A DNA stretch of 64,000 nt from a virus, in IMG/VR virus record IMGVR_UViG_3300042922_000982, positions 93,407 through 157,406 of that record; one strand, written 5' to 3'. The translations under genes and the position numbers were made by a program. Within the stretch, counting starts at the first letter, position 1; each line of letters opens with the position of its first letter. Positions 1 to 64,000 of this stretch are shown here, in pieces. The notes beneath the pieces were generated by a model. It saw only the letters and a program-made list of their open reading frames with translations. It searched no databases and was not told the origin of the DNA.

Positions 1-159
1 ATCGTGGACCGCCTGTTCGGCGTCGTCGAGGCTTGATCTGGCGATGGTGATCTGCAAGGTGCGGGGCCTGGGAAGATCCTTCAAGTGCAGGGTGGTGGTG
101 CGCTCCGCTGATACGAAGCGCACCCCCGACACCGTCACCTGGAAGGTCGTCTGTTCCAT
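1..159 (-). CDS. hypothetical protein, runs off left edge (MEQTTFQVTVSGVRF...)
   Basis: ATG at 159 just downstream of the giant gene stop; open to window edge. Confidence 0.5.
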   Translation of the reverse strand, partial: MEQTTFQVTVSGVRFVSAERTTTLHLKDLPRPRTLQITIARSSLDDAEQAVHD

Positions 160-180
160 GGCCCCGGCCCTGCCGATCGC

Positions 181-3100
181 CTACTCCAGATCCGGCTCGG
201 CGTGCCCGGCGGTACGGCCGGGCGCGCGATCGCTGCGTTTCTTGCCCATGAACTGGGCCTTCACGCGAGCGGGAGCCGCCTCGGCACCTTCCACCCGGCC
301 GAAGCGCGCCGCCTGGCGCACCTCGCCTGCCAGCTTCTGCTTGCGGGCAACCGCGATCCCCTTCTTCTCGTCCAGGGTCGAGACCCCGGCCGTGTGCGAG
401 CGGGTGATGACGCGGTGCACGATCGCCTTCGGCACCGAGCCGGTGAGGCGGGCGTGACGCCCGTAGAGCTGCTCCAGGTTGGCCTGGTTGTAGTCGCCGT
501 CCAGGTCGATCAGGTGCGTGCCGCGACCCAGGTTGACACCCGAGGCCGCGATGTTCGAGCTGACGACCAGGATCTTGTGCGCCTCGTTCTCGTTGAAGCT
601 CTTGACCGTATCGTTGCGCGAGGCGCTGATGCGGGTGTCGTGCTTCTCGACAGGCGACGTCTCCTCGTCCTCCGCGCCCGGCTCGGGCGTGAAGTCCTCG
701 TCGGTGCCGCCCGCCTCCTCGTGCGCCGCCTTCAGCTCGTCTTGCGACGCGCGGATGACGCCGTACTTGTAGCCCAGGCGATCGGCATCGGCGCCGCCCG
801 CCATCTTCTGCACGTCGGCATGGGCCCGCTTGAGGCGTTCGTACGTGTTGGACGTCTCGGGGAAGGTGCTGAGGCGATCGCGGGTGTCCGCGTGCGCCCG
901 CGCCACCGCCTTGAGGTTGCGGTGCTCGACCTCCTCCTCGTGCGTCAGACCGCCCGCCGCCGCCTTGGCGGACAGGTGGTTGTGGCGCTCGTAGGCGTGC
1001 TTCGTGTTGTCGTGGGTGTCTTGCAGGCTGGCCTTGAGGGCCTGGTGCTTGGTCGCCTCTTCGTGCATCTGGCGCTCGATCGGCTCCAGGCTGCTCTCGA
1101 GGTGGCGCTTGGCGTTGGCGCCCGAGTACTCGCCCATCACGCGCTTGGCCACCCCTTCGAGGTGGTTCTGGCCGTTGACGCGCTTGGAGGCGAGGATGAT
1201 CTTGGCGTGGGGGTCGTTGCGCATGATCTCGCGCACCTTGTCCTCCACGGCCTTGATCTTGTGAGCGTGAAGCTCCTCCTCCGAGTGGGCGATCGCCGCC
1301 AGGGCGCCCTTGCCGATCTTGCCGTCCTTGCCGCCGCCCTCGATCGCGCTCATGGCGCCAGAGCTGTGAAGCTCCTCGTGGTGGCGTTGGATCATGGCGT
1401 CGTGCTCGGGGCCGAGATCGACGTGCATGTCCTGCAACTGGGCCGACGGGGGACGCATCTCGGCGTCGAGGTCCTCGTTGGTGGAGGTCACCATGTAGCG
1501 GCTGAGCTTGTTACCCAGCTCGGCCTTCTTCTCCTCGTTGATGCCGATCAGGTGGCCGGTCGACTCGTCCTTGATGCCGTAGTTCTTGATGAACTGCTTC
1601 TCGGTGCCGAGATCGTGCTGGCCACGGTGCGTCATGTTGACGAGGTTGAGCTGCTCGCCCAGGTGGTTCTGGATCGGCGTGCCCGTGAGCGCCATGACGC
1701 CCTTGGCCCGGCCGTGCTGCGACGCCTTCAAGCCCGCGTCCTCGTGGTCGAGGCCGTGGATGTAGGCGTCCACCACCCGGCGCTGGCCGCCCTGCGTGCC
1801 CGCGCGGTTGAGCGTGTGCGCCTCGTCGACGATCACGCCGTCGAAGCCCTGCTCTTTCAGGTGCTGGGCGATCGGCTTGCCGCCCACCTTCTTGTTGCCG
1901 TGCACCGGGGCGCCGTCCTCGCCGAACAGCTCGTGCGCCTTGATGTTGTGCTCCGCCTCCAGGGCCGCCTGGACCTCGGGCCGGTGCAGATCATCGTGCG
2001 TGAGCCCCTTGTCGCGCATCACGTCCGCGAGCTTGACCGCCCCGATGCGGGTGGCCTTGTTCGCGAGCATGGAGCGCGTGACGACGTGGTACTTCGCGTT
2101 CGGGCTGATGTCCTTGCCGAACGAGATCTCGCCGCCCTCGTGGTGATCACCGGCGCCGGGCAGGTGCGGCTTCATGCCGAAGAAGGCCGCCGCGTCGTCT
2201 TTCCAGGCTTTCGCCTGGGTGGTGGAGGGCACCACGACCAGGTGCTTCTGCGCCGCGTCCGGGTTCTTCACCTTGGCAAGCTCGGCCGCCGCGAGCGCGG
2301 AGCTGGTCTTGCCGTTGCCGACGCCGAGCGCGCTGATGGTGCGCTGCCCGCCGTTGACGTAGTGGTGAATCATCTTCTGCTGGTGCTTGGTGAACCCGAT
2401 CTGACGGCCGTTGGTGTCGCCGTTGATGTGGCTCAACAGGCCAGGGATCGCCGTGGTCGCCTTGCCCTCGGGGCCGTAGACGTGAGAGCCCAGCTCGTCG
2501 AAGCCGTTGATCTGGTCGGCTGCGAGGGCCGCTTTTTGGCGGACCTGCTGCAAGCGCGGCAGGATGTCGCCGCGCAGCTTGACGCCGCCGAGCAGGTGCG
2601 TGATGCGGTCGACCGCCTCCATGGGCACGACCAGCCCGCGCTTGCCGCCCTTGGCGTTGGCCAGCTGGCCGTAGCCTTCCTCTTTCAGCATGCCGAGCAC
2701 CTGGGCGATCGCGTGCGCCTTGCGGATCGCCTGCGATTGCTCGGTGGTGGTGCCGAGGTTGGCGTCTTCCAGCCCGCCGAGGCCGTGCTTCTCGCCCAGC
2801 TCCTTGATGATGGCCTGCTCTTGCGCCTGGGTGGGCGTGCCCTTCCAGAACATCTTGTGCTTGACCATCGCGTTGGCCAGCTCGATCAGCTTGCCCTCGG
2901 GATCGGTGGGGTCCGACGGCAGGCTCAGAATGGCGCGCGGCTCGGGCGCGTCGATCTCGGGCAGGCCGTCCTTGACGCGCTGCTTGTTCGCCTTCAGGCG
3001 CGCCTTGCGCTCGTCGGCGGACTCGGGCTGCTCCATCTGGATGGTGGGCACGTCGGCGTGGGCCTTGCGGTCCGCGTCGGCGAGCTTGGCGTCGACGATC

Positions 3101-6100
3101 GCCTTCTCCTCGGGCGTGTGGGCCTCGAAGTAGGCGTGGGCCTTCTCGCGGCTCCAGTTGCCCAGGGCGGTCATCTTGTCCTGCTTGGCGTCGTAGCCCG
3201 CGAAGAGCTGCTTGCCGTTGTGCTCCACCGGCCCCTGGTGCTGGGCCAGGCCGCCGGTCTCGCCGATGATCTCGTGCAGGCGCTTGCCCGCCAGGTTGCC
3301 CTGGGTGATCACGGGCGACCCCTTGTGGTCGTACGTGACATGCATGAGCCAGTGGCTGTTGCCGTTGGAGAGGTGCACCACCGAGCTGGTGCCCGCCAGC
3401 GCGCGCAGCTTGCGGTTGAGGTCGTCGGCGGTGTGGATCACGGTGTCGCCGAGCAAGCCGCCCCAGTACTGATCCTTCACGCGGCCGTCGGCGCCGATGT
3501 GAATGTCGATGTCGTGGCCGTCGTGCGTGCGCGCGGTGAACGTGCGCGTGCCGTCGTCTTGCTGGGCGCCTTCCTTGAAGTCGACCGGGGCGTCCTCTGC
3601 CGCCGCCTTCGCCTTCTCGCCCTTGGTGGCCGTCTTGCGCACCTTGCCGTCGGCGACGGTGCGCTTGTGGCCCGCGATCTGCTTGGCGACGTGCTCGCTC
3701 AGGTCGTTGCCCGAGCTGTTCTGAATGGCCGCGTCGAGCTCCTTGTTGAAGTCGACCGCCAGGTTCTTGTTGTCGAGCCCCAGGTGGCGGTACAGCGCGG
3801 CGGCCGGGATGGTCCCGTCCTTCTTGCTGCCGGGCACCTGCGTCCCGTGCTCCGTCTCCGCGAACAGCTCGGTCTTGTGACCCTTCTTGCTCTTGGCGTC
3901 GTAGCTCTGGCGGACGTGAACGTGGACCGTCTTGCCCTCGTGCTGGATGGTGAACTTGTGCTCTTTCGCCGCCTTCTCGTCATCCGCGTGGCTGTGATCG
4001 CCGAAGTCGCCGCCGCCCGACAGGTGCGCGTGAAGCTCGGAGATGTGCTTGCCCACGAAGGCCGAGGGACCGGCGGCAATCTGGCCGCCCTTGGTGATGT
4101 ACACGGCGCGCCCGTGCATGGTGATCCAGCGCCCGCCGGGGTACTTCGAGAGCATCTCGGCGCCGATCCCCTTGAGGATCAGGTCGTCGAAGGGCTCGTC
4201 AACGCCCGCGACCAGCGCGTCGGCCACCCGGTAGGTCAGGCTGCCGGTGTAGCTCTTGGCGATCGCCTCGTCCACCTGGGACAGAGAACCCGGCCCGGCA
4301 AACGCCGCCATCTGGAAGATGAGGCCGTTGGCGCGGTCGACCACGGTCCAGACGCGATCGTCGCCGCCCAGGCTCTTGACCAGGCCGGTGTCGGCCAGCC
4401 ACATCTTCACCGTGCGCTGCGGCTCGGCGTCGAGGGGCCGATCCTCGAACACGAAGGCCATCAAGCGGCCCTCGGCGGTGTAGGGCATCAGCCCCTTGGT
4501 CAGCTCGGTGCCGTGGAAGTCCTGGAGGTCGCCCGCCAGCTGGAGGTGCTGCTTGGCGTTCATGAGCATCTTGCGGCCGGTGCCGGGGTGGTAGCCCAGG
4601 CGCTCGAACACGTCCGACACCGCGATCCAGCTCTTCTTGCCGCCCACCACGTCCTTGGTGGACTTGGGGGTGGTCAGCATGGCCATGTAGTCGCCCTTCC
4701 ACTTGAGGAGGTTGAGCGCCAGCTGGTACTTCTGGCCGTTCGGGTTGACCTTCGAGGGCTTGACGCCGCCGTTGACCAGCATGCGATTGACGATCATGTG
4801 ATCGTTAATGGCCACGGGCTCGCGATCGGCGGCTTGCAGGAGCGCCTTGTACTCCTTGCCCTTGCGCTGATCCTTGGGCACCTTGCGCACCGCGCTCTTG
4901 GCCGCCTGGATCTCGGCGTTCTGCGCGTTCAGGTCGTCCTTGGCGCGCTTGAGGCCCTCGGCCATGGCCGGAACGTGCTCGTGCTTGAGCATGTCCTTGA
5001 GCGCCTTGCCGCCGTCCTCGAGGCCCGCCGACACGACCACGGCGTAGCGCGCGCGGGGGTCGGGAATTTGCGCGATCGCCGCGCCCATGAGGGCCTGCAA
5101 CCGCTCCGAGTGATCGGCTTGCGCCACCTGGGCGAGCGGGTCGACGCCCTTGCCCTCGACCAGATCGCCGAGCGTGCCCGCTTGATCATCGTCGCCCGCC
5201 GGGGCGTCGAGGTGGGCGGCCACGACCTCGTGGGCCAGGCGCGACAGGCGCTTGACCTCGGCCGTTTCGACCTGCATGGCGTGAGCCAGCTCGGTGTCGG
5301 TGGCCGGGCGGCCAAGCTCCGTCTCCAGGGCGCCGCGCACGCGGCTCATCTGGGTCAGGCTGGTGTTGTCGGCCTGCGACACGCGAATGGGGCTGACGCC
5401 CATGATGTCGCGCCACTTGCGGCTCAACTCCTGATCGACGGTGCCCGCCACCTGATCGTGCAGGCTGGTGATGCGCTCGGTGGGGTCGTGGCGACCGATC
5501 ACCTGCCACGCGCTCATGCGGGCGTGCTGCGCCATGTCGGCGAAGAACGAATTGCTCGCCGGGCGGCCCTTCTCGTCGACGGAGGCCGTCATGCCGAGCT
5601 TGCGCATCCAGTTACCGGCGATCGCCACGATCTTCGGCTCCATGTTGCGCAGGGTCGCTTCTTTCACCCGGCGCTCCAGCTCCGGGGTGTAGTCCTTGTA
5701 GCCCTTGAGCTTCTCGCGGATCCGCTGCTTCGCCTCGTCGCCGTCGGCGAGGAAGAGCTGGCCTTCGAGCTTCTTCTTCTCGGCGAACTTGCCGAGGTGC
5801 TCCTCGAACACCGCCTGCTTCTGCACGCGGGCCGCCGCGCCCTCGGCGCTGTCCTTCTTGAGGCCCGGAATGTCGAACAGGGGGGCGGGCTTGCCGAGCG
5901 TCACCTTGGCCGGGGCCGCCGCCGTGTTCACCTTCGCGCGCACGTCGGGCTCGGCCCAGGCAAGCGAGCCCTGCGGGCCCACGCCGGGGAGCGTCTTGGG
6001 GGTCTTGGGCTTGGCGGCGGCCTTCGTCGCCTTCGTTTTCTTGCCGCCCGCCTCGCCGTGGGTGCCCACGGTCAGGACCGGCTGCTTGGCGTGCGCCTTG

Positions 6101-6567
6101 ACCTTGCCGCCCACATGGACGCCGGTCTTGCCCGCCTTGGCGGCAGCCTTGGTGGCCGGGGCGATCGCCGCCGCCTTCTTGGGCGATTGCGCCTTGAGGG
6201 CCGTGCTGGCCTTGCCCGTGGTGGGCTTGGTCGGCGCCTTGGCGACGGCCTTGGCCTTCACCTTGGCCTTCGGCGCGGCCACGGTGGCCGCCTTGCCCGC
6301 CTTCTTCGCGGGCTGGGCGCCCACGGGCTTGGCCTTGGGCACCGCCGCGCTGGCCTTGCCCTTGGTGCCCTTGACGGCCGCCTTGGTGGCCTTGGGGGCC
6401 GCGCCCGCTTTCGCGTCCTTCTTCTTGAGCTTCGCTTCCTCCAGAAGCTTGGCCGCGAGCGCGCTCACGACCTTTTTCTTGTTGACGTTGCGGGTGGTCT
6501 CGCGCACCTGGTAGACCGTGCCCGTTTTGGTGTGGCTCTGGTGAGCCTTCACCCTTTCGGTACTCAT
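181..6567 (-). CDS. giant polyvalent protein: N-terminal shared motif, Lys/Ala-rich region, sigma-70-like domain, linker, SNF2-type SF2 helicase
   Basis: AGGAGG 9 nt before ATG 6567; sigma-like NMEPKIVAIA, FADMAQ..RHDP, ELGRPATDTELA..HLDAPAGDDDQAGTLGDLV; helicase motifs GVGNGKT, IVDEAH, LTGTP, SGVNL, QLYGRHAR. Confidence 0.85.
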   Translation of the reverse strand: MSTERVKAHQSHTKTGTVYQVRETTRNVNKKKVVSALAAKLLEEAKLKKKDAKAGAAPKATKAAVKGTKGKASAAVPKAKPVGAQPAKKAGKAATVAAPKAKVKAKAVAKAPTKPTTGKASTALKAQSPKKAAAIAPATKAAAKAGKTGVHVGGKVKAHAKQPVLTVGTHGEAGGKKTKATKAAAKPKTPKTLPGVGPQGSLAWAEPDVRAKVNTAAAPAKVTLGKPAPLFDIPGLKKDSAEGAAARVQKQAVFEEHLGKFAEKKKLEGQLFLADGDEAKQRIREKLKGYKDYTPELERRVKEATLRNMEPKIVAIAGNWMRKLGMTASVDEKGRPASNSFFADMAQHARMSAWQVIGRHDPTERITSLHDQVAGTVDQELSRKWRDIMGVSPIRVSQADNTSLTQMSRVRGALETELGRPATDTELAHAMQVETAEVKRLSRLAHEVVAAHLDAPAGDDDQAGTLGDLVEGKGVDPLAQVAQADHSERLQALMGAAIAQIPDPRARYAVVVSAGLEDGGKALKDMLKHEHVPAMAEGLKRAKDDLNAQNAEIQAAKSAVRKVPKDQRKGKEYKALLQAADREPVAINDHMIVNRMLVNGGVKPSKVNPNGQKYQLALNLLKWKGDYMAMLTTPKSTKDVVGGKKSWIAVSDVFERLGYHPGTGRKMLMNAKQHLQLAGDLQDFHGTELTKGLMPYTAEGRLMAFVFEDRPLDAEPQRTVKMWLADTGLVKSLGGDDRVWTVVDRANGLIFQMAAFAGPGSLSQVDEAIAKSYTGSLTYRVADALVAGVDEPFDDLILKGIGAEMLSKYPGGRWITMHGRAVYITKGGQIAAGPSAFVGKHISELHAHLSGGGDFGDHSHADDEKAAKEHKFTIQHEGKTVHVHVRQSYDAKSKKGHKTELFAETEHGTQVPGSKKDGTIPAAALYRHLGLDNKNLAVDFNKELDAAIQNSSGNDLSEHVAKQIAGHKRTVADGKVRKTATKGEKAKAAAEDAPVDFKEGAQQDDGTRTFTARTHDGHDIDIHIGADGRVKDQYWGGLLGDTVIHTADDLNRKLRALAGTSSVVHLSNGNSHWLMHVTYDHKGSPVITQGNLAGKRLHEIIGETGGLAQHQGPVEHNGKQLFAGYDAKQDKMTALGNWSREKAHAYFEAHTPEEKAIVDAKLADADRKAHADVPTIQMEQPESADERKARLKANKQRVKDGLPEIDAPEPRAILSLPSDPTDPEGKLIELANAMVKHKMFWKGTPTQAQEQAIIKELGEKHGLGGLEDANLGTTTEQSQAIRKAHAIAQVLGMLKEEGYGQLANAKGGKRGLVVPMEAVDRITHLLGGVKLRGDILPRLQQVRQKAALAADQINGFDELGSHVYGPEGKATTAIPGLLSHINGDTNGRQIGFTKHQQKMIHHYVNGGQRTISALGVGNGKTSSALAAAELAKVKNPDAAQKHLVVVPSTTQAKAWKDDAAAFFGMKPHLPGAGDHHEGGEISFGKDISPNAKYHVVTRSMLANKATRIGAVKLADVMRDKGLTHDDLHRPEVQAALEAEHNIKAHELFGEDGAPVHGNKKVGGKPIAQHLKEQGFDGVIVDEAHTLNRAGTQGGQRRVVDAYIHGLDHEDAGLKASQHGRAKGVMALTGTPIQNHLGEQLNLVNMTHRGQHDLGTEKQFIKNYGIKDESTGHLIGINEEKKAELGNKLSRYMVTSTNEDLDAEMRPPSAQLQDMHVDLGPEHDAMIQRHHEELHSSGAMSAIEGGGKDGKIGKGALAAIAHSEEELHAHKIKAVEDKVREIMRNDPHAKIILASKRVNGQNHLEGVAKRVMGEYSGANAKRHLESSLEPIERQMHEEATKHQALKASLQDTHDNTKHAYERHNHLSAKAAAGGLTHEEEVEHRNLKAVARAHADTRDRLSTFPETSNTYERLKRAHADVQKMAGGADADRLGYKYGVIRASQDELKAAHEEAGGTDEDFTPEPGAEDEETSPVEKHDTRISASRNDTVKSFNENEAHKILVVSSNIAASGVNLGRGTHLIDLDGDYNQANLEQLYGRHARLTGSVPKAIVHRVITRSHTAGVSTLDEKKGIAVARKQKLAGEVRQAARFGRVEGAEAAPARVKAQFMGKKRSDRAPGRTAGHAEPDLE

Positions 6568-6658
6568 ACGCTCCATCCTCCTATTGGCATGGGATTGGCG
6601 TTCCGAGCGTAGCACGGGCAAGCAGCCGAAAAGGCACCATTTGACACCTTAGACGCAA

Positions 6659-6887: not shown

Positions 6888-7256
6888 TCATGCGTAATCG
6901 ATCGCCACCACGCGATCGCCCCAGCGGCCCACGTTGCTGTCGTCGAGGTCCTCGGTGAGCCCCGCGAACATGGCCGGGCACCATACCCATCCCTCCGGCA
7001 GCGGCTCGGCGCGGGCCATCACGTTGAGCCACCCGCCGGGGGACGCCCAGAGGGTCGGGCACAGCCGGAAGTGCCCCCGGTGCTGGGCCCACACCGACGC
7101 CTCGTTCATGTTGGACAAGAGCCCCCACAGGAACGCGTACCACCCGGCCGTCACGATGGGCACCTTCACCACCACGCCCCCGATCAAGAGGGCATGGCGG
7201 GTGGCGCCGGTGGCGATCGCCAACCGGCCGGGCAAGCGGCGCGCCAGGCCCCTCAC
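6888..7256 (-). CDS. minimal protein-kinase-like fold protein
   Basis: GTGA overlap with upstream stop; VVVKVP, NMNE, DLDDSNVG, VAIDY in kinase motif order. Confidence 0.55.
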   Translation of the reverse strand: MRGLARRLPGRLAIATGATRHALLIGGVVVKVPIVTAGWYAFLWGLLSNMNEASVWAQHRGHFRLCPTLWASPGGWLNVMARAEPLPEGWVWCPAMFAGLTEDLDDSNVGRWGDRVVAIDYA

Positions 7257-9163
7257 CACAGCAGGGGCGCCTCGGTGTCGCGCGGCACGGTAACGACCGC
7301 GTCGCGATCGCCGCGCCAATCGCCCACGCTCTTGGCGAGCCCGCCGCCGTGAATCTCGGCGTAGGTCAGCTGGGTCTCCTTCACCCCCTTGAACTCCTTG
7401 TGCGCCTTCACCTTGGCCGACATGTCGTAGGTGGTGCCCGGCTTGAGGCCGGTCGGCTTGGGGCTGAACCAGGAGGCCAAGTTGCCCTGCTCGTCGGTGA
7501 ACTTGTGCAGGTAGCTGGTGCCCCAGGCGTTGGTGATGGGGCGCGGCTCCTCGAGCAGCTTGAACTTGCCGGTCACGGGCGCGCCCGGCACGCCGATGTG
7601 GCCCGAGCGCTTCGGCGCGTTGACCATGCCGTTGGCGCGGGCGTCTTTCGCCGCCGTATTGGCCGCCTTGATGGCCGTGCGCTCCGCCTGCTCGGGGTCG
7701 ACGGGCGCGGGCCTCGGCGCCGCCGCCTTGAGGGGCCGCCCGGTGCCGACCAGCTTGTGCGCGAGCGCCACGTCGCGCGGCGACGGGTTCTGCTTGACCA
7801 GGTGGAAGCCGTCGTAGTCGAAGCCCGCGTCCATGAGGATGCGCCGCAGCCCCCTGGAGGTCTGCGGGAAGGTCAGATTGACGCCCAGGCCCCGCTTATT
7901 GGGGCCCTCGCCGTGCCGGACGGCGCCGTTGTAGCCGTCGTAGGTGCCGGGCGTGCCCATGTCGGGGCTGACGCCGTGATCGAGCCCGGTCACGCTGTAA
8001 CCCGCGTGATCGACCTGCGAATTGCCGATGATCACATGGCCGAACGGGCCCAGCACGACATGGTGGCCCTGCGTGCCGGGGCCGAGGTAGACGTGGTGGT
8101 CGTCGCCGAGCTTGACCACGTCGCCGGGGCTCAGGGGCGCCTGGGCGCCGTCCTTGCCCGCCTTGTCGTTGGCGATCGCCCCGGTGTGGGTGATGCCGCG
8201 CTGCCTCAACTCGTAGTCGACGTCCGGCGGCAGGGCCGGGCCTGCGGGTGGCTTGCTCATCTTCTTCGGTTCCCCGGGCGTTTTGTCCACCTTCACGGCC
8301 AGCCTTGGCTCGCGTTCGGTGGGCTTGGCGGTCGCCCGCTTCACTTTACCCTCCGCCGGGGCCTTCGCGCCAGATGCCTCGGGCTTGAGCGTGTGCGCCT
8401 TCGGCTTGACGAGCTTGGGCGCCTTGCCGGGCGCGGCGTCCTTCTTGACGGCCGCCTTCGGCGGCGCCTTGTCCGCCTTGACGGTCGCCTTCGGCTCGGG
8501 GGCGGGCTTGGGCGCCTGCTTCTTCACCGTGGCGATCGCCGCCTTGGTGGTCTTGGGCTTGGCGGCGGCCTTGGTCGCCTTGGGGGCCGCGCCCGCCTTC
8601 GCGTCCGGCTTGACCTTCTTGGCGGGGGCCTGCTTCGCCACGGCGGCCTTCGGCTTGGCGGCCGGTTTCACCGGGGTCGCCTTGACGGCGGGCTTCGGGG
8701 CCCTGACGGCGGGCTTGGGGCGGTTGACGCGCAGGTGATCGTGCGCCGCTTTCACCCAGGCCGCCGTGGCCGTGTCGACCGGGTGGGTCGTGTCGTTGGT
8801 GAAGGTGTACTTGTCGCGGGCCGTGGCGATCGCCGCCTTGATGTCGGGGATGGCCATGCCCTGGAAGTGCGCCCGGTGCTCCAGATAGACCTTGTCCGCG
8901 AGCGCCTTGAGCCGGGGGTCGGTCAGCCGATCAATGAAATCGCTGGCCTCCTTGGCCGTGATCGGCGCCGAGGCCGGGGCCGTCGCCGCGCGCGCCTCGA
9001 TAGCCATCTGGCTCGCCATGGCGGCCACCAGCGCCCGCTTGTTGACGTTGGCGGTGTGTGCGCGCACCTGCGCCACCTTGCCGCCCTTGGTGCGGCGCTG
9101 GTGCGCCCGCACGTTGACCAGGGCCTTGTTCAGCCCGTCGATCGCCTGATCCACCTGTCCCAT
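7253..9163 (-). CDS. probable head-packaged protein; shared N-terminal motif, Lys/Ala/Pro-rich middle, C-terminal OB-fold-like domain
   Basis: LNKA-LVNVRAHQRRTKGGKVAQVRAH; C-terminal SGHIG..FTDEQGN..WF..KVKAHKEFKGVKETQLT. Confidence 0.65.
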   Translation of the reverse strand: MGQVDQAIDGLNKALVNVRAHQRRTKGGKVAQVRAHTANVNKRALVAAMASQMAIEARAATAPASAPITAKEASDFIDRLTDPRLKALADKVYLEHRAHFQGMAIPDIKAAIATARDKYTFTNDTTHPVDTATAAWVKAAHDHLRVNRPKPAVRAPKPAVKATPVKPAAKPKAAVAKQAPAKKVKPDAKAGAAPKATKAAAKPKTTKAAIATVKKQAPKPAPEPKATVKADKAPPKAAVKKDAAPGKAPKLVKPKAHTLKPEASGAKAPAEGKVKRATAKPTEREPRLAVKVDKTPGEPKKMSKPPAGPALPPDVDYELRQRGITHTGAIANDKAGKDGAQAPLSPGDVVKLGDDHHVYLGPGTQGHHVVLGPFGHVIIGNSQVDHAGYSVTGLDHGVSPDMGTPGTYDGYNGAVRHGEGPNKRGLGVNLTFPQTSRGLRRILMDAGFDYDGFHLVKQNPSPRDVALAHKLVGTGRPLKAAAPRPAPVDPEQAERTAIKAANTAAKDARANGMVNAPKRSGHIGVPGAPVTGKFKLLEEPRPITNAWGTSYLHKFTDEQGNLASWFSPKPTGLKPGTTYDMSAKVKAHKEFKGVKETQLTYAEIHGGGLAKSVGDWRGDRDAVVTVPRDTEAPLLW

Positions 9164-9191
9164 GGTGCCCTCCTGCCCCTATGCCCGAGCC

Positions 9192-10817
9192 CTACTGCTC
9201 GTGGCCCTCCTGCGCGCGCTCGTGAAGGATGCTCGTGTACACGTCCGCCGCCGTACCCAGCGCGTGCAGCGGGTTGAGGCCGTGGCCCTTCTTGCCGTGC
9301 CCCTTGCCCTGTTTCTTGCCGTCGGCGTCGTGCGGCCCCTCGGGCAACTCGGGCGCCGTGCCGGGGAGGTCGTCCGCGTGATCGTGCGGATCCGAATCGT
9401 CGGCCACCGGGGGCTCGGCGCTCGCGCCGTCGGCCGCCGGGGCCTCGGCGGGTTCCGGGGCGCCCTCCTGGCCATCCTGGGCGCCCTCCGTGGGGGTGTC
9501 CGGGGCGGGGGTTGTGCCCTTCTTCTTGCCGCCCTGCTGCTCGCCGGTGTTGGCGTCCGTGACCGGCCATTCGCGCGTGGGGCGATCGCCGTCGCCCTCC
9601 GCGTCGGGCGCGGGGGCGCTGGGCGGCTCGGGCTCGGCCACCCCCGGCATGGGGGCCATGCGAGGCGCGTGCGGCGCCGCCGGAATGACCTCGTCGGCCG
9701 GAACCTGGGCCTGATCGGCCTCCGCCGTGGCGCGCTCCTCGTAATTGCCGACCCGCTCGGTGTGGGCGTCCTCGAGGGCCGCGTGCTGCTCGGTGGCGGT
9801 GGTGCCCGCAGGCGCCTTGGGGGGCGCCTTGCCCTCGGCCTTCGCCTTTTGGGCGGCCTTGTCGTGCTCGGCTTGCGCCTGCGTGGCCTCCTTGTCGGCG
9901 GCGGCGGCCAGGTCGGCCTTGGCCTTGACCTCGGCCTCGGTGGGCAGGGTGTTCACGGCCTGGCGAATGTCGGCCCAGGCGGTGTCCCACGCCGGGCCCT
10001 CGTGGCCGTTCGATTCGGTGTGGGCGTTGAAGTGGTGACCGAGGGCGATCGCCTCCTCTTTGGTGCTGGCCTGCATGGCCGCCACCTCGAAGTGGCCGGG
10101 GGTCTTGAGCTTGTCCGCCCCGCCGCGCACGAATCCGGGCACCGACGTGGGCGTCTTGGCCTCGCCGCTGCGCAGGCCGTCCGGGCTGGCCTGGCGCGCC
10201 TTGACCTTCACGCTGGAGCGCACGTCCGACGAGTCCCAGCCGCTCGCGGCCTGGCGGACCGCCTCGTACTGGCCGAGGACGTGGCCGTGCTCCGGGCTGC
10301 CCGGCGGCAGGGCGCGCAGGTGCGCGAGCATCTGGCTGCCCGCCTCGTGGAGGTGGTGCGGCGCGTCCGTGCCCATGGCCTGCTTGGAGGCCGCCTTCGG
10401 CTTGCCCTTGCCCTCGGCGCGCTTGGCGTTGGATGTTTTACCGGCGGCCGGGCCGGGGGCGGGGGCGTCGTGCGCCACCCGCTTGGCGCCGAGCTTGCTC
10501 AGGCGATCGGCGTGCGCGGCGCTGCCCGCGACGTGGAATTGGCCCCGGTGCGCGAAGATGGCCGCGCCGGGGGTCTTATTGGCGTGGGCTACCGCCTTTT
10601 TCTTGGAGGCGAAGGTGGTCACCTCGCCGCCCGCGCGCATCTTGGCGATCGCATCCACCATGGCCGTCTTGTTGACGGTCATCTGGTGCTGCTTGACCTG
10701 GATGACGTGCCCGTCTTTCGCGTGGGACTCGTGCGCCCGAACGTCGGTCATGCCCTTGACCATGTCCTCCAGCGCGGCGAGCGCCGTGTTCAGCTTGCCC
10801 CCGTTCGACGTGCCCAT
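9192..10817 (-). CDS. probable head-packaged protein with shared N-terminal motif and helical module shared with the MuF protein
   Basis: MVKG-MTDVRAHESHAKDGHVIQVKQH; acidic/Pro-rich C-terminus. Confidence 0.65.
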   Translation of the reverse strand: MGTSNGGKLNTALAALEDMVKGMTDVRAHESHAKDGHVIQVKQHQMTVNKTAMVDAIAKMRAGGEVTTFASKKKAVAHANKTPGAAIFAHRGQFHVAGSAAHADRLSKLGAKRVAHDAPAPGPAAGKTSNAKRAEGKGKPKAASKQAMGTDAPHHLHEAGSQMLAHLRALPPGSPEHGHVLGQYEAVRQAASGWDSSDVRSSVKVKARQASPDGLRSGEAKTPTSVPGFVRGGADKLKTPGHFEVAAMQASTKEEAIALGHHFNAHTESNGHEGPAWDTAWADIRQAVNTLPTEAEVKAKADLAAAADKEATQAQAEHDKAAQKAKAEGKAPPKAPAGTTATEQHAALEDAHTERVGNYEERATAEADQAQVPADEVIPAAPHAPRMAPMPGVAEPEPPSAPAPDAEGDGDRPTREWPVTDANTGEQQGGKKKGTTPAPDTPTEGAQDGQEGAPEPAEAPAADGASAEPPVADDSDPHDHADDLPGTAPELPEGPHDADGKKQGKGHGKKGHGLNPLHALGTAADVYTSILHERAQEGHEQ

Positions 10818-10818
10818 G

Positions 10819-12663
10819 CTACTTGCCCCCCTTCGCGGCCCGGATGGCCGCCTTCAACTCGCTCCACACCCGGTCCCACTCGGGCCCCGTCACCCTGGCA
10901 TGCGCCTTGTAGGACTCCATGTAGTGCGCCAAATCGACAAGCTCGTCGCGATCGCCCGCCATGTGGATGGCCAGCTCGAATTGGCGCGGGCTCTTCAGGT
11001 GCGCCGCGCCCCCCGTGACGAACGCGGGGGCATCCCCGAGCGGATCCGGCTTGGGCGGGGTGCGCCGGGCATGCCAATCGCTCACCGCGCCGCGCAGGGC
11101 CTCGTACTGCTTATGGACGTGCGCGTGGGCCTCGGAGCCGGGCCTTAGCGTGCGCAGGTGAGTGAGCGTCTGCATGGCGGCGGCGTGCAGGTGATCGGGG
11201 TGCTTGAGCCCCACCGCCTGCGGCATGGTCATGCGCGGGGCGTGCGCGGTGCCCTCCTCGAGATCCGCCTCGGCGGGCTTGCCCTTCTTGGCCGGTTTCG
11301 GCTTGGGTTTCGGCTTGGCGATCGCCTTCTCCATGGCCCACAGGGCGCCCTTGGCGATCGCGTCCATGCTCGGCGGCGCGGGCTCGGGCGCGATGGTCGC
11401 GACCAGGGCGGTGAGCGCCCCTAGCTCGTAGGTGTAGGGATTGGCGCCCGGCACGCGGCGCGCGGCCAGGCTCTTGACGATCTTGCCCACGGGTTTGGCC
11501 CTCCAGTTGTCGGGTTCTTTGGCCGCCACCGGGCTGGTGTGCGGGTAGCAGCGGCAGCGGGGATGCAGGGGTAGCAAATTGAGGATCTGGAGCAGGGAGT
11601 ACTTGCGCCCCTCGTGCGGCGCGCAGTGCTTGCAGACCTTGTCGTCGCCCATGGTGCGCAAGTAGACGTATTTATAGCCGTGCGCGCGCAGCACGTCGGC
11701 CACGCCGTGCGCGTAGCCCGCCGCCACCATGCACTCGGCGATCAGCTTGCTGCGGTGCATGCTATAGAGCTTGGAGAGCAGCGTGTCGACGTCGGCGGCC
11801 TCCCCGCGCGCGGCGATCATGGCCAGTTGGGTCTCGGTGGTGGCGCGGATGCGCCGCACGTTGCGCCGGGCGATCGCCTCCAGGCGCTTCTTGGTGGCGC
11901 CCCTGAACCCGCGCGTGCGATCGGGCGGCAGCTTGCCCCCTTTCGCGTCGTTGAGGATGGCGCGCGCGGCCTCGGCGCGGCCGAGCTTGGCGGCGCGCTC
12001 CAGGGCGTGCATGGTGAGGTCCGCGCCCTCCGCGTCGGAGCCCTTGTAGCGCGGCCGGGCCAAGTCCGAGAGCACCGGCCGGGCCTTGGGGTGCCCCTTG
12101 GGGTAGGGGGTGCCGATGGCCTTGGACAGCGTGAGGCCCTTCTCGCTCGCGATCGCCCGGACGTGCGCTTCGAGCCACGGCGCGAAGGCGTCTGCGAGCA
12201 CCCGCTCGACGCGCAGGCGCTCGTCGGTGAGGTCCAGCTCCTGCATGAGCCCGCGCGCCTTCTGCCCGACGAGCGCGCGGATGATCTCGCGGGTGGGCGG
12301 CATCAGCTTGGCCGGTAGCTGATCGGGGTAGACCCAGCGGGCCTCGTCGCTCTCGCGCTCGGCGATGCGGAGGGCGCCCTCGGGGTGGCGCATCAGGAAC
12401 GCCTTACCCACGCCGCCGGGGAAGGTGTAGTCCTGCGAGATGCCGGTATACGTGGCCGTGAGCCCGGTTTCCTCGAGTAGCTCGCGGTGCGCGCCCGCCA
12501 AAAACGACTCGCCGGGCTCCTTGCCGCCGCCGGGCAGGTTCCAGTGATCGCCGAACAACTCCTCGGTGGCGGGGCGGTGAAGCAGCAGCACGCGGCCCTG
12601 CGGGTCGACGACAACCGCGCGGGTGCCGGGCTTGAATTTCCAGGCGTCAGAAGCTTCGGGCAT
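10819..12663 (-). CDS. Nudix hydrolase fused to MuF/SPP1 gp7-like head morphogenesis protein
   Basis: Nudix box GGGKEPGESFLAGAHRELLEETGL; MuF motif DDKVCKHC..PLHPRCRC; GAGG before ATG 12663; close to portal. Confidence 0.85.
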   Translation of the reverse strand: MPEASDAWKFKPGTRAVVVDPQGRVLLLHRPATEELFGDHWNLPGGGKEPGESFLAGAHRELLEETGLTATYTGISQDYTFPGGVGKAFLMRHPEGALRIAERESDEARWVYPDQLPAKLMPPTREIIRALVGQKARGLMQELDLTDERLRVERVLADAFAPWLEAHVRAIASEKGLTLSKAIGTPYPKGHPKARPVLSDLARPRYKGSDAEGADLTMHALERAAKLGRAEAARAILNDAKGGKLPPDRTRGFRGATKKRLEAIARRNVRRIRATTETQLAMIAARGEAADVDTLLSKLYSMHRSKLIAECMVAAGYAHGVADVLRAHGYKYVYLRTMGDDKVCKHCAPHEGRKYSLLQILNLLPLHPRCRCYPHTSPVAAKEPDNWRAKPVGKIVKSLAARRVPGANPYTYELGALTALVATIAPEPAPPSMDAIAKGALWAMEKAIAKPKPKPKPAKKGKPAEADLEEGTAHAPRMTMPQAVGLKHPDHLHAAAMQTLTHLRTLRPGSEAHAHVHKQYEALRGAVSDWHARRTPPKPDPLGDAPAFVTGGAAHLKSPRQFELAIHMAGDRDELVDLAHYMESYKAHARVTGPEWDRVWSELKAAIRAAKGGK

Positions 12664-12696
12664 GGGCATCCTCGGGGAAACGGGCGATCGGACCTC

Positions 12697-12707: not shown

Positions 12708-12725
12708 CAGATGCGTCCGAAAGGG

Positions 12726-12764: not shown

Positions 12765-12785
12765 GATAACGGGCGATCGCCGCAC

Positions 12786-19991: not shown

Positions 19992-19995
19992 GGGG

Positions 19996-52884: not shown

Positions 52885-53358
52885 CTAGGCGCCCTGGGCG
52901 ACGCGCGCGGCGCGCTCGAGATCGGCGTTATTCAGAAACACGCTGCGCAAAGGCGGCGCGTCGGGAGAGTAGAGCGCGGCGAAGGGGGCGAGCGCCGCTT
53001 TCAAGTCGGCGATCTCGGTGGCGTGTTGGCTGTTCGCCTTGCCGCGCGCGGGCTTGACGCTATTTTCGGCCATCTCGCTTGCCTGGGGTAGTGCGTCGGT
53101 CACATCCCACGCCACCGCCTCGCGCTCGGACACGGTGCAAAACCGCTCCCCCGCCTCGGCGACGACGCCCAGGCGCACCAGCTCCTTCATGCGCGGGCTG
53201 ATCGAGTCGCGCTCGGCGCCGAGCCGCTTGGCCACCTCCTTGGCGGTGAGCGGCCCGTGGTGGAACAACTCCTGGTAAACGGCGAGCTTGAGCTTGGACA
53301 AGAGGCCCTCGGCCTCGATCTGGTGGTAGGCTTGCGCGCTGGTGCGGCGGGTCGTCAT
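52885..53358 (-). CDS. winged-HTH protein
   Basis: GPLTAKEVAKRLG..SISPRMKELVRLGVV. Confidence 0.65.
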   Translation of the reverse strand: MTTRRTSAQAYHQIEAEGLLSKLKLAVYQELFHHGPLTAKEVAKRLGAERDSISPRMKELVRLGVVAEAGERFCTVSEREAVAWDVTDALPQASEMAENSVKPARGKANSQHATEIADLKAALAPFAALYSPDAPPLRSVFLNNADLERAARVAQGA

Positions 53359-53369: not shown

Positions 53370-54377
53370 CTACTGGGGGTCGGTGAGGGCGGCGAACAGG
53401 CTAACAGCGGTGGGCTTGTTGGCGGCTGGGTCGATGCAATGGGGGCTGAACCAGATGCGCTCGCGCTTGGCGTTCTCCTTGCCCGCGCCGTCGCCGAGGT
53501 TGCCGTAGCCGCCCTGGGTCTTCCAGGGGATCTCGATCCAGGTGTCGGGCATCACGTAGTCGCCTTCATAGCCGCACAGCGCGATCCTGAGCTTGGGGTT
53601 GTCGCCGTTGGCGATGCACCACTCGATCGCCTCGCGGGCCGGATCCTCGGTGTCGTTGTTGTAGACGCCCGCCGCGCGCCCGGCGAGCAGGTACGGCGGG
53701 TCGAGAAACACGGCCGTCACGCCGAGATCCGTGCTGATCGACTCGCCCATGAGCCGCTTCCAATCGCCGCAGCTGACGCGCACCTCGCGCAGGCGATCGC
53801 CGAGCAATTGCATCATTTCGCGCAGGTAAGCCGATCGCTCGGCCTCGAAGCCGGGCGTCCCGGCGGGCACGTTCGGCACCTTGCGGAACACGCCCCGGCC
53901 GGGGCCCATGTGCGGGATTTGCGGGTGCACGCCCTTGATGCCCGCCTCCGCGTCGAGGCCGTACTTGCCCTCGCCGTCACACCAGCCGTTGCCGAGCCAG
54001 AGGCACATGCCCCACAGCCACCAACCGGCCACCTGGGCGTCGTAGCGGTTCGGGTTGTCACTGAGCCCCTCGATGCGCTTGGCGCCCTCGTTGACCAGCC
54101 AGTGGTGGCGGGCAAGCAGGTCCTGCTCGGATATGATCCAATCGGCGTGGGCGGCCACGGCCATCGGGTCGCTCTTGACGGCGCGCCAGAAGTTGACGAG
54201 GAACCCGTCGATGTCGTTAATCATCTCCTTGCCGGGCAGGTGCGGCCGGGCGAGCAGCATGGCGCCCGAGCCGAAGAAGGGCTCGACGTAGACCGCCGGG
54301 TTGCCGAAGCGGGCCCACACAAGCTCGGCGACGCGGCGCTTGCCGCCGAAGTAGGGGTAGGGGGCCTTCAGGCTCAT
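53370..54377 (-). CDS. D12-class N6-adenine DNA methyltransferase
   Basis: PYPYFGGK, EPFFGSGA, NDID, VFLDPPY; ATGA overlap with thyX. Confidence 0.9.
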   Translation of the reverse strand: MSLKAPYPYFGGKRRVAELVWARFGNPAVYVEPFFGSGAMLLARPHLPGKEMINDIDGFLVNFWRAVKSDPMAVAAHADWIISEQDLLARHHWLVNEGAKRIEGLSDNPNRYDAQVAGWWLWGMCLWLGNGWCDGEGKYGLDAEAGIKGVHPQIPHMGPGRGVFRKVPNVPAGTPGFEAERSAYLREMMQLLGDRLREVRVSCGDWKRLMGESISTDLGVTAVFLDPPYLLAGRAAGVYNNDTEDPAREAIEWCIANGDNPKLRIALCGYEGDYVMPDTWIEIPWKTQGGYGNLGDGAGKENAKRERIWFSPHCIDPAANKPTAVSLFAALTDPQ

Positions 54378-55348
54378 CGAGCACCCTCCTGGGCGCCCTG
54401 GGCGCTGAACATGGCCACGAACTCGGCGCGCTCGGTCGGGTTCTCGATGGCCTCGGCCGCAGCCTGGAGCCGATCGGCGAGGACGTGGGTCTGCACCAGG
54501 GCCTTGAGCACCTCGTAGCCGGTTTTCGACACCGTCTTGGCGCCGATCACCCAGTCGTCGGCCGCCTTCATGGCCAGCGGCGCGACGGCCTTGGCCGCTT
54601 CGTACATGGCCTCGGCGTAGACGCGAATTTCCTTCTGGGCGTGCCAGTCGAGGCGCAGGCGCAAGAAGTGGGCCAGGTTGTGCAGGTCGATCTGCCAATA
54701 GATCATGGTGTACAGGTTCTGCGGCAGCACCATGCGCGCCTGCTCGCGGGCCACGCCGTCACGCGGGCCCTCCGGCTTCTCGGGGTCGACGGGATCGCCG
54801 AGCAGGGTGTTGTAAGACCCGTAGCCGATGCCGCAGACGGCCTTGAACACGCTCAGGGCTTCCTCGCGGGTTGCCATGGGCAAGTCGCCGTCGCCCACCT
54901 GCTTGTTGACGGCCGACTGGCCGCGCACGTCGTCCAGCTCGGGGATGTAGAACTCGTCTTCCATGACCGAGTACCTGGCCGAAAGCGAATTCAGCCGGGC
55001 CATGCGGTGCCGGACGAGCTGGGCGAACACGAACAGCGGCAGCTTGATGCGGAAGGTCATCACGACCTGCTCGAACGGGCTGGTGTGCTTGTTGCGCATC
55101 AAGTAGCGGATCAGGCCCTCGGGGGGCCGCGTGGCGGTGGTGCCGCCGCCGTAGCTCACGCGGGCCGCCTCGACGATGCGATCGTCGCCGCCCATGTAAT
55201 CGATCAACTGAACGAAGCCCTTATCGAGCACCGGACGGCTCGCGCCGACGATCGCCTCGGCCGTGTCGACCGTCATGCGCCTCGTCCAGCGCCAGCCCTT
55301 GACCGAGTGGGGGATTTCGGGGATTTCGTTGGGGGTGAAGGTGCTCAT
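54374..55348 (-). CDS. thyX: FAD-dependent thymidylate synthase
   Basis: AARVSY, HTSPFEQ, RHRMARLNSLSARY, REQARMVLP, HAQKEIR. Confidence 0.95.
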   Translation of the reverse strand: MSTFTPNEIPEIPHSVKGWRWTRRMTVDTAEAIVGASRPVLDKGFVQLIDYMGGDDRIVEAARVSYGGGTTATRPPEGLIRYLMRNKHTSPFEQVVMTFRIKLPLFVFAQLVRHRMARLNSLSARYSVMEDEFYIPELDDVRGQSAVNKQVGDGDLPMATREEALSVFKAVCGIGYGSYNTLLGDPVDPEKPEGPRDGVAREQARMVLPQNLYTMIYWQIDLHNLAHFLRLRLDWHAQKEIRVYAEAMYEAAKAVAPLAMKAADDWVIGAKTVSKTGYEVLKALVQTHVLADRLQAAAEAIENPTERAEFVAMFSAQGAQEGAR

Positions 55349-63155: not shown

Positions 63156-63695
63156 CTAGCCGTTGTCGGGAATCGAGGGGGCGGGCTCTGCCGCCGGGGC
63201 GGAATCCGCCGGGGTGGGATCGGCCGCCGAGGCAGGCTCGGCAGCGGGCTGCACGGCGGCCACGGCAGGCTGAAGGGACGCCAGGGTGCTGTTGACGCCG
63301 GTGTTGGGCATGGCCTTCAAGAAGCCGCTCACCTTGTCGAGCCAGTCCGGGGCGGGCTCGCCCATGGCCTGGCAGATGGCCGCCCAGTTGCGCGTGATGC
63401 TGAGCAAGTCCGCGCCCACCACGCCGATCAAGATGGCGCCGCAAATCAGGCTGAAGTCCGAGCTGATGGCCATCAGGCACAGGCACAGGAACACGACCGC
63501 GATGTGCAGGAACACGTCGAGCGGGCCCTTGCGCAAGGCGCCCGGATCCAGTTGCCGGGTGGCGATCGCCTTCACCACCCCGAAGGCGATGTCGGTGCTC
63601 TTGACGCCGAGCAGCCCCCACAGGGGCGGGTAGGTGTGCAAGGTGGCGGCCACGGCGCCTGCGGCGGCCACCAGCGTGTCAACGGTCAGGGGCAC
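63156..63695 (-). CDS. holin (holin-4-like)
   Basis: TDIAFGVVKAIATRQLDPGALRKG plus hydrophobic segments. Confidence 0.7.
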   Translation of the reverse strand: MPLTVDTLVAAAGAVAATLHTYPPLWGLLGVKSTDIAFGVVKAIATRQLDPGALRKGPLDVFLHIAVVFLCLCLMAISSDFSLICGAILIGVVGADLLSITRNWAAICQAMGEPAPDWLDKVSGFLKAMPNTGVNSTLASLQPAVAAVQPAAEPASAADPTPADSAPAAEPAPSIPDNG

Positions 63696-63957
63696 GGTTT
63701 ACCTCCTTGAGCCGCGCCTGCATGGCGGCCCAATCGGCCTCCAGACGGCTTGCGGCGTCGATGATGGGATGCTTGCTTGTGTCCAGACTAGCCAAATTCG
63801 GCGCCCCCAGGTCGGAAAGTGCCTGGAGGATGGCCGCCTGATTAGCCAAAATGGCCACAATCGCGCTCAGGCCGTGCGCGTCGAGAACGGCGCGCTCCAG
63901 CTCGGAACGCTCGGGCACGCGCTCGACGAACCCGTTGGGGTGGATGTATTGCTCCAT
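63679..63957 (-). CDS. hypothetical protein
   Basis: GGAG RBS before MEQYIHP. Confidence 0.55.
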   Translation of the reverse strand: MEQYIHPNGFVERVPERSELERAVLDAHGLSAIVAILANQAAILQALSDLGAPNLASLDTSKHPIIDAASRLEADWAAMQARLKEVNRAPDR

Positions 63958-64000
63958 GGCGGAATCTCCCACAAAAAAGGGCCGGGCCACGCCCTGGGGC

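Follow-up and report, generated by a model that had tools for sequence, protein, structure and literature searches.

The HIP1 palindrome, in an extended form, in the genome of a high-GC phage with a possible host among the Cyanobacteriota

Introduction

HIP1 (GCGATCGC) is a palindromic octamer that was described in 1995 and whose function has been unexplained since (PMC4390886). In cyanobacteria, it is found at densities of 300–2700 per Mb (PMC4390886), with a 15- to 300-fold over-representation (PMC5861425), and is associated with DNA methyltransferases for GATC (DmtA-type) and CGATCG (DmtC-type) (PMC4390886). Its distribution is periodic, with periods of 10–90 kb, and HIP1 sites are conserved between related genomes beyond control palindromes, which constitutes evidence of selection (PMC5861425). 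The searchable literature treats HIP1 as a trait of photosynthetic cyanobacteria, and the two cyanobacterial groups known at that time to have a high content of G and C (GC), Gloeobacter and the picocyanobacteria, were reported to have no excess (Elhai 2015, PMC4390886). Here, we describe HIP1 in a stretch of 64,000 nucleotides of viral DNA, positions 93,407–157,406 of the IMG/VR virus record IMGVR_UViG_3300042922_000982 (hereafter, the window), which makes up the last 64 kb of the 157,406-bp record, and in the record as a whole. The record is linear, without end repeats, has a GC of 0.688 and is rated 100% complete (CheckV); this rating, together with genes for a portal, a large terminase and a baseplate, identifies the DNA as a tailed, SPO1-like phage of ~157 kb.

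HIP1 is already present in public cyanophage genomes, so that its occurrence in phages of HIP1-bearing hosts has precedent. Among nine cultured cyanophages tested, the HIP1 load is all or nothing: the Nostoc phages A1 (KU234533) and N1 (KU234532) and the Planktothrix phage PaV-LD (HQ683709) carry 39, 42 and 46 sites, respectively (480–650 per Mb), and S-2L, A-4L, Pf-WMP4, PP, Ma-LMM01 and Mic1 have 0–1 sites each. A1, N1 and PaV-LD differ from the phage described here in their low GC, their photosynthetic hosts and a HIP1 density that is about half as high. No analysis of HIP1 in phages was found in open-access papers and preprints, where two papers mention both in passing, nor any mention of GCGATCGC together with Sericytochromatia or Melainabacteria.

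HIP1 in the phage genome

The window contains 114 copies of HIP1, compared with 6.28 ± 2.4 (largest value, 14) in 100 shuffles that preserved the dinucleotides, and the whole record contains 191, corresponding to densities of 1781 and 1213 per Mb. In the window as in the whole record, HIP1 is the most frequent octamer. A preliminary description of the window, made by eye, had put the number of copies in the first 20 kb at about 44, which is also the exact count. Its figure of about one expected copy is right for a null of base composition (0.8 per 20 kb), but real high-GC coding DNA gives more.

About half of the sites belong to a longer word, the 10-mer GGCGATCGCC, which accounts for 61 of the 114 sites in the window (~950 per Mb) and 93 of the 191 in the genome (49%; 591 per Mb). 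Under Markov models of order 0, 1, 2 and 3, the observed count divided by the expected one (O/E) in the window is 44, 18, 7.8 and 9.8 for GCGATCGC and 199, 106, 33 and 30 for GGCGATCGCC; for the whole genome, compared with composition, the values are 30 and 124. A fifth-order Markov model brings the O/E of HIP1 down to only 1.7, but such a high-order model is unfit as a null, since it contains the sub-words of HIP1 itself. The excess is nested: in the genome, GATC has an O/E of 3.0 and CGATCG one of 7.9 relative to composition, G..C flanks are found on 45% of the CGATCG sites, and a further G..C pair on 49% of those, where chance would give ~12% at each step. Variants of HIP1 that are off by one letter pile up at its first and last positions (85 and 75, compared to 20–46 at the inner positions).

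With genes called by the periodicity of GC at third codon positions (n = 193 in the whole record), 99 of the window sites lie inside called genes and 15 in non-coding DNA or at gene edges. The non-coding DNA of the whole genome has 24 HIP1 sites, where 0.97 are expected from composition, a 25-fold excess. The intergenic copies that had been pointed out by eye are indeed present, as two pairs:

Window 14403–14440: intergenic HIP1 pair, copies 30 nt apart and mutually complementary
Window 35775–35829: two intergenic HIP1 copies, followed closely downstream by additional, partial ones (GGCGATCGG) on the minus strand

From its complementarity, the first of these pairs could form a hairpin.

How does this compare with HIP1 in cyanobacteria? 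As there, HIP1 is the commonest octamer, occurs in all three reading frames as well as in non-coding DNA, is not accounted for by codon usage, and is accompanied by one-off variants at the end positions (PMC4390886), and the density of 1213 per Mb is within the published cyanobacterial range. On the other hand, the carrier is a virus, with a GC of 0.69 that is far above that of the published HIP1-rich genomes. The extension to GGCGATCGCC, found on 49% of the phage sites, is less complete than in Synechocystis PCC 6803, Synechococcus PCC 7002 and Leptolyngbya PCC 7376 (69–88%), and the O/E of 30 relative to composition is lower than Elhai's typical 55–228, because the high GC raises the expectation.

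A signal written at the DNA level

Could the excess be a by-product of the proteins and codon usage of a high-GC genome? Two codon-aware nulls were applied to the whole genome, with 200 replicates each. When synonymous codons were permuted within genes, which keeps both the proteins and the codon usage, 74 ± 5.6 sites were obtained, 24 of them being the non-coding sites that the permutation leaves untouched, compared with the 191 observed (z = 20.7). Shuffling the codons within genes gave 38 ± 3.5 sites (z = 43). The excess, which the preliminary description had allowed might disappear under a codon or dipeptide null, thus stays.

The reading frames tell the same story. In the genome, 103 of 115 Ala-Ile-Ala tripeptides (90%) are spelled GCG-ATC-GCN, when 36% would be expected from codon usage, in agreement with the Ala-Ile-Ala copies noted previously. 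The sequence Asp-Arg preceded by Cys, Ser, Arg or Gly is spelled NGC-GAT-CGC in 52 of 74 cases (70%, compared to 14% expected), and x-Arg-Ser-x is written as HIP1, with a CGA codon, in 13 of 41 (32%, compared to 2%). HIP1 is therefore found in all three frames (103, 52 and 13 sites), in each of them 2.5- to 15-fold above the prediction from codon usage. The codons recruited in this way include GAT, the minor Asp codon (23%), and CGA, which makes up 6% of the Arg codons, and the tripeptide Ala-Ile-Ala is itself four times as frequent as expected (2.57 per 1000 residues versus 0.65). HIP1 is thus written at the level of the DNA and is no by-product of proteins or codon usage.

The composition null nevertheless overstates the effect, since ordinary high-GC bacteria already carry an excess of CGATCG and HIP1. 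In 96 unrelated high-GC loci, CGATCG is found at 5.3 times the level expected from composition, and about 25 diverse high-GC genomes, which were picked up by the HIP1 pattern scan itself, have 150–400 HIP1 per Mb, compared with ~40 expected. Control genomes spell Ala-Ile-Ala with GCG-ATC in 67–83% of cases. The excess of GATC and CGATCG is thus generic to high-GC DNA, and the 8-mer and 10-mer layers alone are specific. The octamer as a side effect of GATC saturation was ruled out, as GATC and CGATCG are at these generic levels and the excess grows 3- to 4-fold with every G..C pair that is added.

The Asp-Arg frame and the 10-mer set the phage apart from this background. The share of the Asp-Arg frame spelled as HIP1, 70% in the phage, is 9% in Sphingomonas, 8% in Thermoleophilia and 20% in Thermoanaerobaculia; in a Sericytochromatia genome that is high in GC but free of HIP1, it is 0%. 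In even samples of non-cyanobacterial genomes, 454 in total and including eight flagged as unpublished, the maxima for the 10-mer are ~128 per Mb in Thermoanaerobaculia (n = 81), ~100 in Actinomycetota (n = 151), ~94 in Pseudomonadota (n = 151) and ~67 in Deinococcota (n = 71), and typical densities are 10–50 per Mb; the 591 per Mb of the phage is about 5-fold above the maxima. Around 20 diverse high-GC genomes that were counted separately have 30–156 10-mers per Mb.

Distribution along the genome

The density of GATC is flat along the genome, at 8–10 per kb, but that of HIP1 is uneven:

Genome 0–32 kb: tail and baseplate arm, 0.47 HIP1 per kb
Arm of small genes: 1.0 HIP1 per kb
Window 181–6621, minus strand: giant open reading frame (ORF) of 2146 aa with sigma-70 region 3 and SNF2/helicase domains, 8 HIP1 sites (1.2 per kb)
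Window 6600–35600, minus strand: HIP1-dense head and packaging block, 81 sites, 47 of them as the 10-mer (2.8 per kb)
Remainder of the window: 0.9 HIP1 per kb

The copies that had been said to continue through most of the window are therefore present, but they are concentrated at 6.6–35.6 kb (2.8 per kb) and fall to 0.9 per kb beyond. In the dense block, all 44 of 44 Ala-Ile-Ala tripeptides are spelled GCG-ATC-GCN. HIP1 is thus densest in the genes for the head, whose expression is presumably high; cyanobacterial HIP1, by contrast, is reported to be anti-correlated with expression (PMC5861425). A recent import of the HIP1-poor tail arm was ruled out, as both of the relatives described below have an orthologous arm in synteny with it.

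Relatives and turnover of sites

Sixteen terminase homologues, at 39–65% identity, were found in public assemblies, the closest (60–65%) on Logan contigs. Relatives were identified via an alignment of these homologues, and two of them, with terminases 52–53% identical to that of the phage, had retrievable genomes, in records that are 60% and 80% complete:

G078: 95.8 kb, GC 0.664, 92 HIP1 (960 per Mb), 56 10-mers (O/E 140)
G077: 121 kb, GC 0.711, 69 HIP1 (569 per Mb), 26 10-mers (O/E 40)

HIP1 words are the top octamers in both. In the frame tests, G078 spells Ala-Ile-Ala as HIP1 in 97% and the Asp-Arg frame in 87% of cases, G077 in 83% and 30%, and the bias of HIP1 toward the head over the tail genes is repeated in G078. 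Since the excess is common to two relatives whose terminases are only 52–53% identical to that of the phage, it is not only genuine but old. When viral contigs were scanned with one protein at a time, the terminase or the portal, the only matches were of ≤28% identity, and a megablast search with 24 kb against cultured phages found no near relative.

The individual sites, on the other hand, are mostly at different positions in the relatives. Among 25–28 orthologous genes with a mean protein identity of 41%, too diverged for the conservation test of PMC5861425, HIP1 is found at the same position in 2 of 23 sites with G078 and 1 of 24 with G077 (0.02 expected in each case). At the Ala-Ile-Ala HIP1 sites of the phage, the relatives have Ala-Leu-Ala, Ala-Val-Ala or Glu-Val-Ala, and at its Gly-Asp-Arg sites, Gly-Asp-Glu or Gly-Lys-Met. 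The few shared positions and the differing peptides indicate that HIP1 has been gained and lost lineage by lineage, along with changes to the proteins.

Avoidance of restriction sites is known from phage genomes. This phage amplifies HIP1 despite the GATC, CGATCG (PvuI-type) and GCGATCGC (AsiSI/SgfI-type) sites that the word contains. Other 6-base palindromes have been purged from its genome: GCCGGC and CCGCGG have 0 copies each, where composition predicts ~260 of each (the O/E of GCCGGC in generic high-GC loci is 1.55), CTGCAG, ACCGGT and GGTACC are likewise missing, and a single CCCGGG is left. Missing from all three phages are CTGCAG, GGTACC, ACCGGT, GCTAGC and CCTAGG; absences private to the relatives are GGGCCC, GGCGCC, GTCGAC, GGATCC, GAATTC and AGATCT for G078 and GTCGAC, GAGCTC and AGATCT for G077. 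This pattern looks as if the phages avoid numerous type II restriction systems, which vary from host to host. As a key for matching phage to host, it proved uninformative, since the words purged from the phage show no such avoidance in the candidate genomes.

Candidate hosts in the cyanobacterial lineage

Where did the phage acquire its HIP1? The reading that we favor, with a confidence that is about evenly balanced, is that this is true HIP1 in the extended form GGCGATCGCC, resulting from replication in a high-GC, HIP1-bearing host of the phylum Cyanobacteriota. Going by signature, the host would most likely be a member of a non-photosynthetic clade of Sericytochromatia, which provides the best candidates, or an unsampled relative with more HIP1.

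HIP1 was counted in 47 Sericytochromatia genomes, starting from 'Candidatus Sericytochromatia bacterium LC083' (JAKFEW01; G001), a match of the HIP1 pattern scan, in which GATC is found at 8.5 per kb, compared with 8.7 in the phage. About 20 of the 47, with a GC of 0.60–0.71, have 320–918 HIP1 and 130–424 10-mers per Mb. In these HIP1-positive genomes, the 10-mer makes up 27–70% of the HIP1 sites, a range that includes the 49% of the phage, and Ala-Ile-Ala is spelled as HIP1 in 71–87% and the Asp-Arg frame in 35–60% of cases. Photosystem reaction-centre (Photo_RC) genes are absent from the three Sericytochromatia tested (G001, G032 and G042). HIP1 is patchy in the sister classes: the high-GC Sericytochromatia subgroup G053–G056 is without excess (~48 HIP1 per Mb at GC 0.67), low-GC Sericytochromatia have 0–6 sites in total, and an even sample of 301 genomes from the phylum includes genomes of ~2 Mb with 0–1 copies of the 10-mer, which are apparently Vampirovibrionia, going by the even sampling across the classes of the phylum.

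The genomes were also compared by their deviations in tetranucleotide usage, with HIP1-derived 4-mers masked and in equal chunks of 8 kb. G042, G039 and G001 match the phage at the 93rd–97th percentile of the 96 generic high-GC loci, and G042 ranks first for all three phages. Among the genomes compared, one Sericytochromatia clade alone combines the GC, the extended word, the frame behavior and the tetranucleotide similarity. The high-GC and possibly non-photosynthetic sister-class host that had been proposed at the outset thus has a signature match in the Sericytochromatia, but no direct link to them was found; the supposed long coexistence with a HIP1-bearing host would agree with the age of the excess, seen in two relatives.

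Several observations weigh against such a host. The phage terminase was not found in the 47 Sericytochromatia genomes. A DNA search with window positions 7001–27000 against 23 of the Sericytochromatia genomes gave short, chance-like matches without the context of clustered regularly interspaced short palindromic repeats (CRISPR), the best being one of 29 nt in a coding context with no CRISPR repeats nearby; within these 20 kb and 23 genomes, the spacer evidence that the preliminary description had asked for was thus not found. By signature, the phage agrees best with high-GC Sericytochromatia. The phage has a higher HIP1 density (1213 per Mb; 2800 in the head module) than every Sericytochromatia genome examined, of which the highest has 918 and the HIP1-positive ones are 1.3–4 times lower; a host lineage richer in HIP1, outside the sample, is possible for this reason. 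A few unrelated high-GC loci match the phage tetranucleotides equally well, and several HIP1-positive Sericytochromatia score low. A HIP1-bearing host is also insufficient to impose the word, since 6 of the 9 cultured cyanophages have 0–1 sites. Furthermore, the HIP1 density is six-fold higher in the head than in the tail module, and since both modules are ancestral to the phage clade, a uniform host-driven bias fails to account for the difference. Lastly, the lack of DNA polymerase, primase and replicative helicase families, which bears on how the phage replicates, comes from a Pfam screen of 143 phage ORFs, in which the genes were called crudely and Pfam matches were the sole criterion.

The Sericytochromatia metagenome-assembled genomes (MAGs) are of cells, and no gene, spacer or prophage link from them to the phage was found. 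Individual genes are equally silent: the phage DnaN is ≤32% identical to named cellular proteins, plus one unnamed match at 42%, and gives no taxonomic signal, a lookup with Tmk returned mixed phyla, and a search with the methyltransferases gave no signal of a host lineage.

How HIP1 might be gained

If the phage does replicate in a HIP1-bearing host, whatever process builds and keeps HIP1 in the host would act on the phage DNA, too. One such process is the ratchet proposed by Elhai, in which mismatch repair directed by methylated GC near CGATCG turns near-misses into HIP1 (PMC4390886); Xu, Lawrence and Durand (2018) instead argued for selection on the density of HIP1 sites (PMC5861425). The excess of one-off variants at the end positions fits the prediction of the ratchet. 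The phage probably uses the host replisome, since it has no recognizable polymerase, yet encodes a sliding clamp, SSB, thymidylate kinase and a DnaC/IstB-like ATPase, and it would thereby be exposed to the repair biases of the host. Each lineage gains sites of its own, and frequently pays for them by using rare codons or changing amino acids. The lifestyle or replication of a phage may decide whether HIP1 is taken up, and the contrast among the cultured cyanophages could be of use in finding out what makes the difference.

HIP1 might also be positively selected in the phage itself, though this appears doubtful. A host repair or nicking enzyme, a recombination or nucleoid-organizing system, or a system distinguishing self from non-self would read the word, and the phage would hold more HIP1 than its host, above all in the head and packaging module, so that it either passes as host DNA or recruits the reader. 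If this were true, a small, fast-evolving clade of phages would amount to a natural experiment that could lead to the long-sought reader and the function of HIP1, and HIP1 would not be tied to photosynthesis and would perhaps be older than it.

Alternative explanations

The host could instead be a photosynthetic, HIP1-rich member of the Cyanobacteriia with an unusually high GC, outside the sample, from which HIP1 was gained by the same mechanism; this is rather unlikely. HIP1 is best known from the Cyanobacteriia (PMC4390886, PMC5861425), cultured cyanophages with HIP1 exist, and the cyanobacterial densities bracket that of the phage, of which the Sericytochromatia fall short: Cyanobacteriia in the phylum sample have up to ~1170 10-mers per Mb, at GC 0.34–0.56, and G251, a photosynthetic cyanobacterium with 6 Photo_RC genes, has 14,949 HIP1 sites within its 4.1 Mb, a density of 3646 per Mb that exceeds the published range of 300–2700 per Mb (PMC4390886). 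The GC of G251 is 0.62, demonstrating that fairly high-GC, HIP1-rich Cyanobacteriia exist, and all 8 genomes of its order (G251 and G333–G339) have 1140–3650 HIP1 per Mb. However, the 20 most 10-mer-rich Cyanobacteriia sampled have a GC of 0.34–0.62, compared with 0.66–0.71 in the three phages. In G251, only 11% of the HIP1 sites are the 10-mer, in contrast to 49% in the phage, and Ala-Ile-Ala is found at 6.8 per 1000 residues. In the tetranucleotide match, the photosynthetic, HIP1-rich cyanobacteria are at the 1st–2nd percentile, G251 for all three phages. The high-GC picocyanobacterium G006 (GC 0.71) has 112 HIP1 per Mb and no excess, in line with the published picture (PMC4390886), and the Pfam screen of 143 phage proteins found no photosynthesis gene.

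A second possibility, and an unlikely one, is that the word is kept for the phage's own use, to be read or written by phage proteins such as methyltransferases or a packaging or recombination factor, which would make its identity with cellular HIP1 secondary. The phage has a higher HIP1 density than all candidate hosts, the concentration in the head and packaging module is found in two of the three phages, and HIP1 flourishes in a genome from which no fewer than five other 6-base palindromes have been purged, down to 0–1 copies. The phage also encodes two candidate enzymes, with a DNA-binding protein between them:

Window 51536–52819, minus strand: D12-class (Dam-like, DPPY motif) N6-adenine DNA methyltransferase, paralogue 1
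Window 52885–53358, minus strand: DNA-binding protein with a winged helix (TrmB/MarR-like), encoded between paralogues 1 and 2
Window 53370–54698, minus strand: D12-class N6-adenine DNA methyltransferase, paralogue 2, which shares 47% identity with the first

The Pfam model matches the D12 methyltransferases over the first ~65 residues only, and a sequence search gave no relative with a solved structure. They may protect GATC-type sites. As drivers of HIP1, however, they are unlikely, because both relatives are without them and unrelated phage-like contigs often carry members of the family: no homologue of either enzyme was found in the HIP1-rich G078 and G077 (in records 60% and 80% complete), and there are >8000 homologues at ~50% identity, without names, on such contigs. 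No match to the cytosine methyltransferase families PF00145 and PF01555 was found in the phage, so that a CGATCG-type cytosine enzyme, as associated with cyanobacterial HIP1, was not detected. Moreover, cellular genomes of equal GC have exactly this word with exactly this GG..CC extension.

It is more improbable still that the host is a high-GC bacterium outside the Cyanobacteriota, with or without a HIP1-like enrichment of its own. A scan of a genome collection for paired 10-mers with GC-rich flanks gave at least 120 matches, with ordinary, non-cyanobacterial high-GC genomes in the majority among the matches listed; the same scan on viral contigs gave 13 loci, mostly with a modest HIP1 density (0.3–1.3 per kb). 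A member of the Thermoanaerobaculia, G026, has 361 HIP1 per Mb, spells the Asp-Arg frame as HIP1 in 20% of cases and has Ala-Ile-Ala at 1.8 times expectation, the alphaproteobacterial MAG G015 has 156 10-mers per Mb, and the cultured phages with the nearest terminases infect, by their names, Rhodococcus and Thermus. However, it was the HIP1 scan that selected G026 and G015, and no genome in its class sample is denser in the 10-mer than G026; the 454 evenly sampled genomes do not exceed ~128 10-mers per Mb, 5-fold below the phage; and the similarity to the Rhodococcus and Thermus terminases is just 25–28%.

Finally, the excess might stem from frequent peptides and the codon usage of high-GC DNA, without a process specific to HIP1. 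This reading, to which the excess of CGATCG in generic loci, the HIP1 counts of the scan-picked genomes, the GCG-ATC spelling in controls and the O/E of 1.7 under the fifth-order model might point, is very improbable, being refuted by the synonymous permutation (z = 20.7) and the frame tests, by the recruitment of rare GAT and CGA codons, by the 25-fold non-coding excess and by a 10-mer density at least 5-fold above all sampled non-cyanobacterial genomes.

Implications

If upheld, the hyper-abundance of HIP1 in a non-photosynthetic clade of Sericytochromatia and its near-absence from the apparent Vampirovibrionia sampled would bear on the time of its origin. A phage clade with HIP1 at or above cellular densities, a rapid turnover of sites, a cost in amino acids and other palindromes purged would likewise offer a compact test of mutation bias versus selection. 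The HIP1 load could also serve as a cheap clue for predicting the hosts of uncultured high-GC phages, provided that the null takes codons into account, since DNA of high GC can, without anything special about it, give the look of an "excess" of 5- to 10-fold. The function of HIP1 is not revealed by its finding in a phage.

Other features of the phage

Additional genes on which the identification and the replication mode of the phage draw are the following:

Window 10819–13071, minus strand: NUDIX hydrolase domain joined to a MuF/minor-head-protein-like region in one ORF of 750 aa
Window 15154–16851: portal, 34–36% identical to SPO1-group portals
Window 26955–28970: large terminase, best identity 25–28%, to Rhodococcus and Thermus phages
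Window 37429–38100: thymidylate kinase (Tmk), from the Pfam screen
Genome record G000:38448–39632: full DnaN sliding clamp, from the Pfam screen
Arm of the genome outside the window: baseplate and tail-tube genes

The Pfam screen of 143 ORFs also identified SSB, the IstB/DnaC-like ATPase, a SpoVS homologue and a nucleoside 2-deoxyribosyltransferase-like protein. No tRNA genes were found in the window. The NUDIX box of the 750-aa ORF gives the only recurrent nucleotide matches to Sericytochromatia (73–78%, ~90 nt), most likely reflecting a conserved motif and not shared DNA. Apart from the HIP1 words, the commonest 12-mers of the genome are those around AAGGAGAACCGCCATG, a ribosome-binding site plus start codon, with 26–29 copies that are mostly located in the small-gene arm outside the window.

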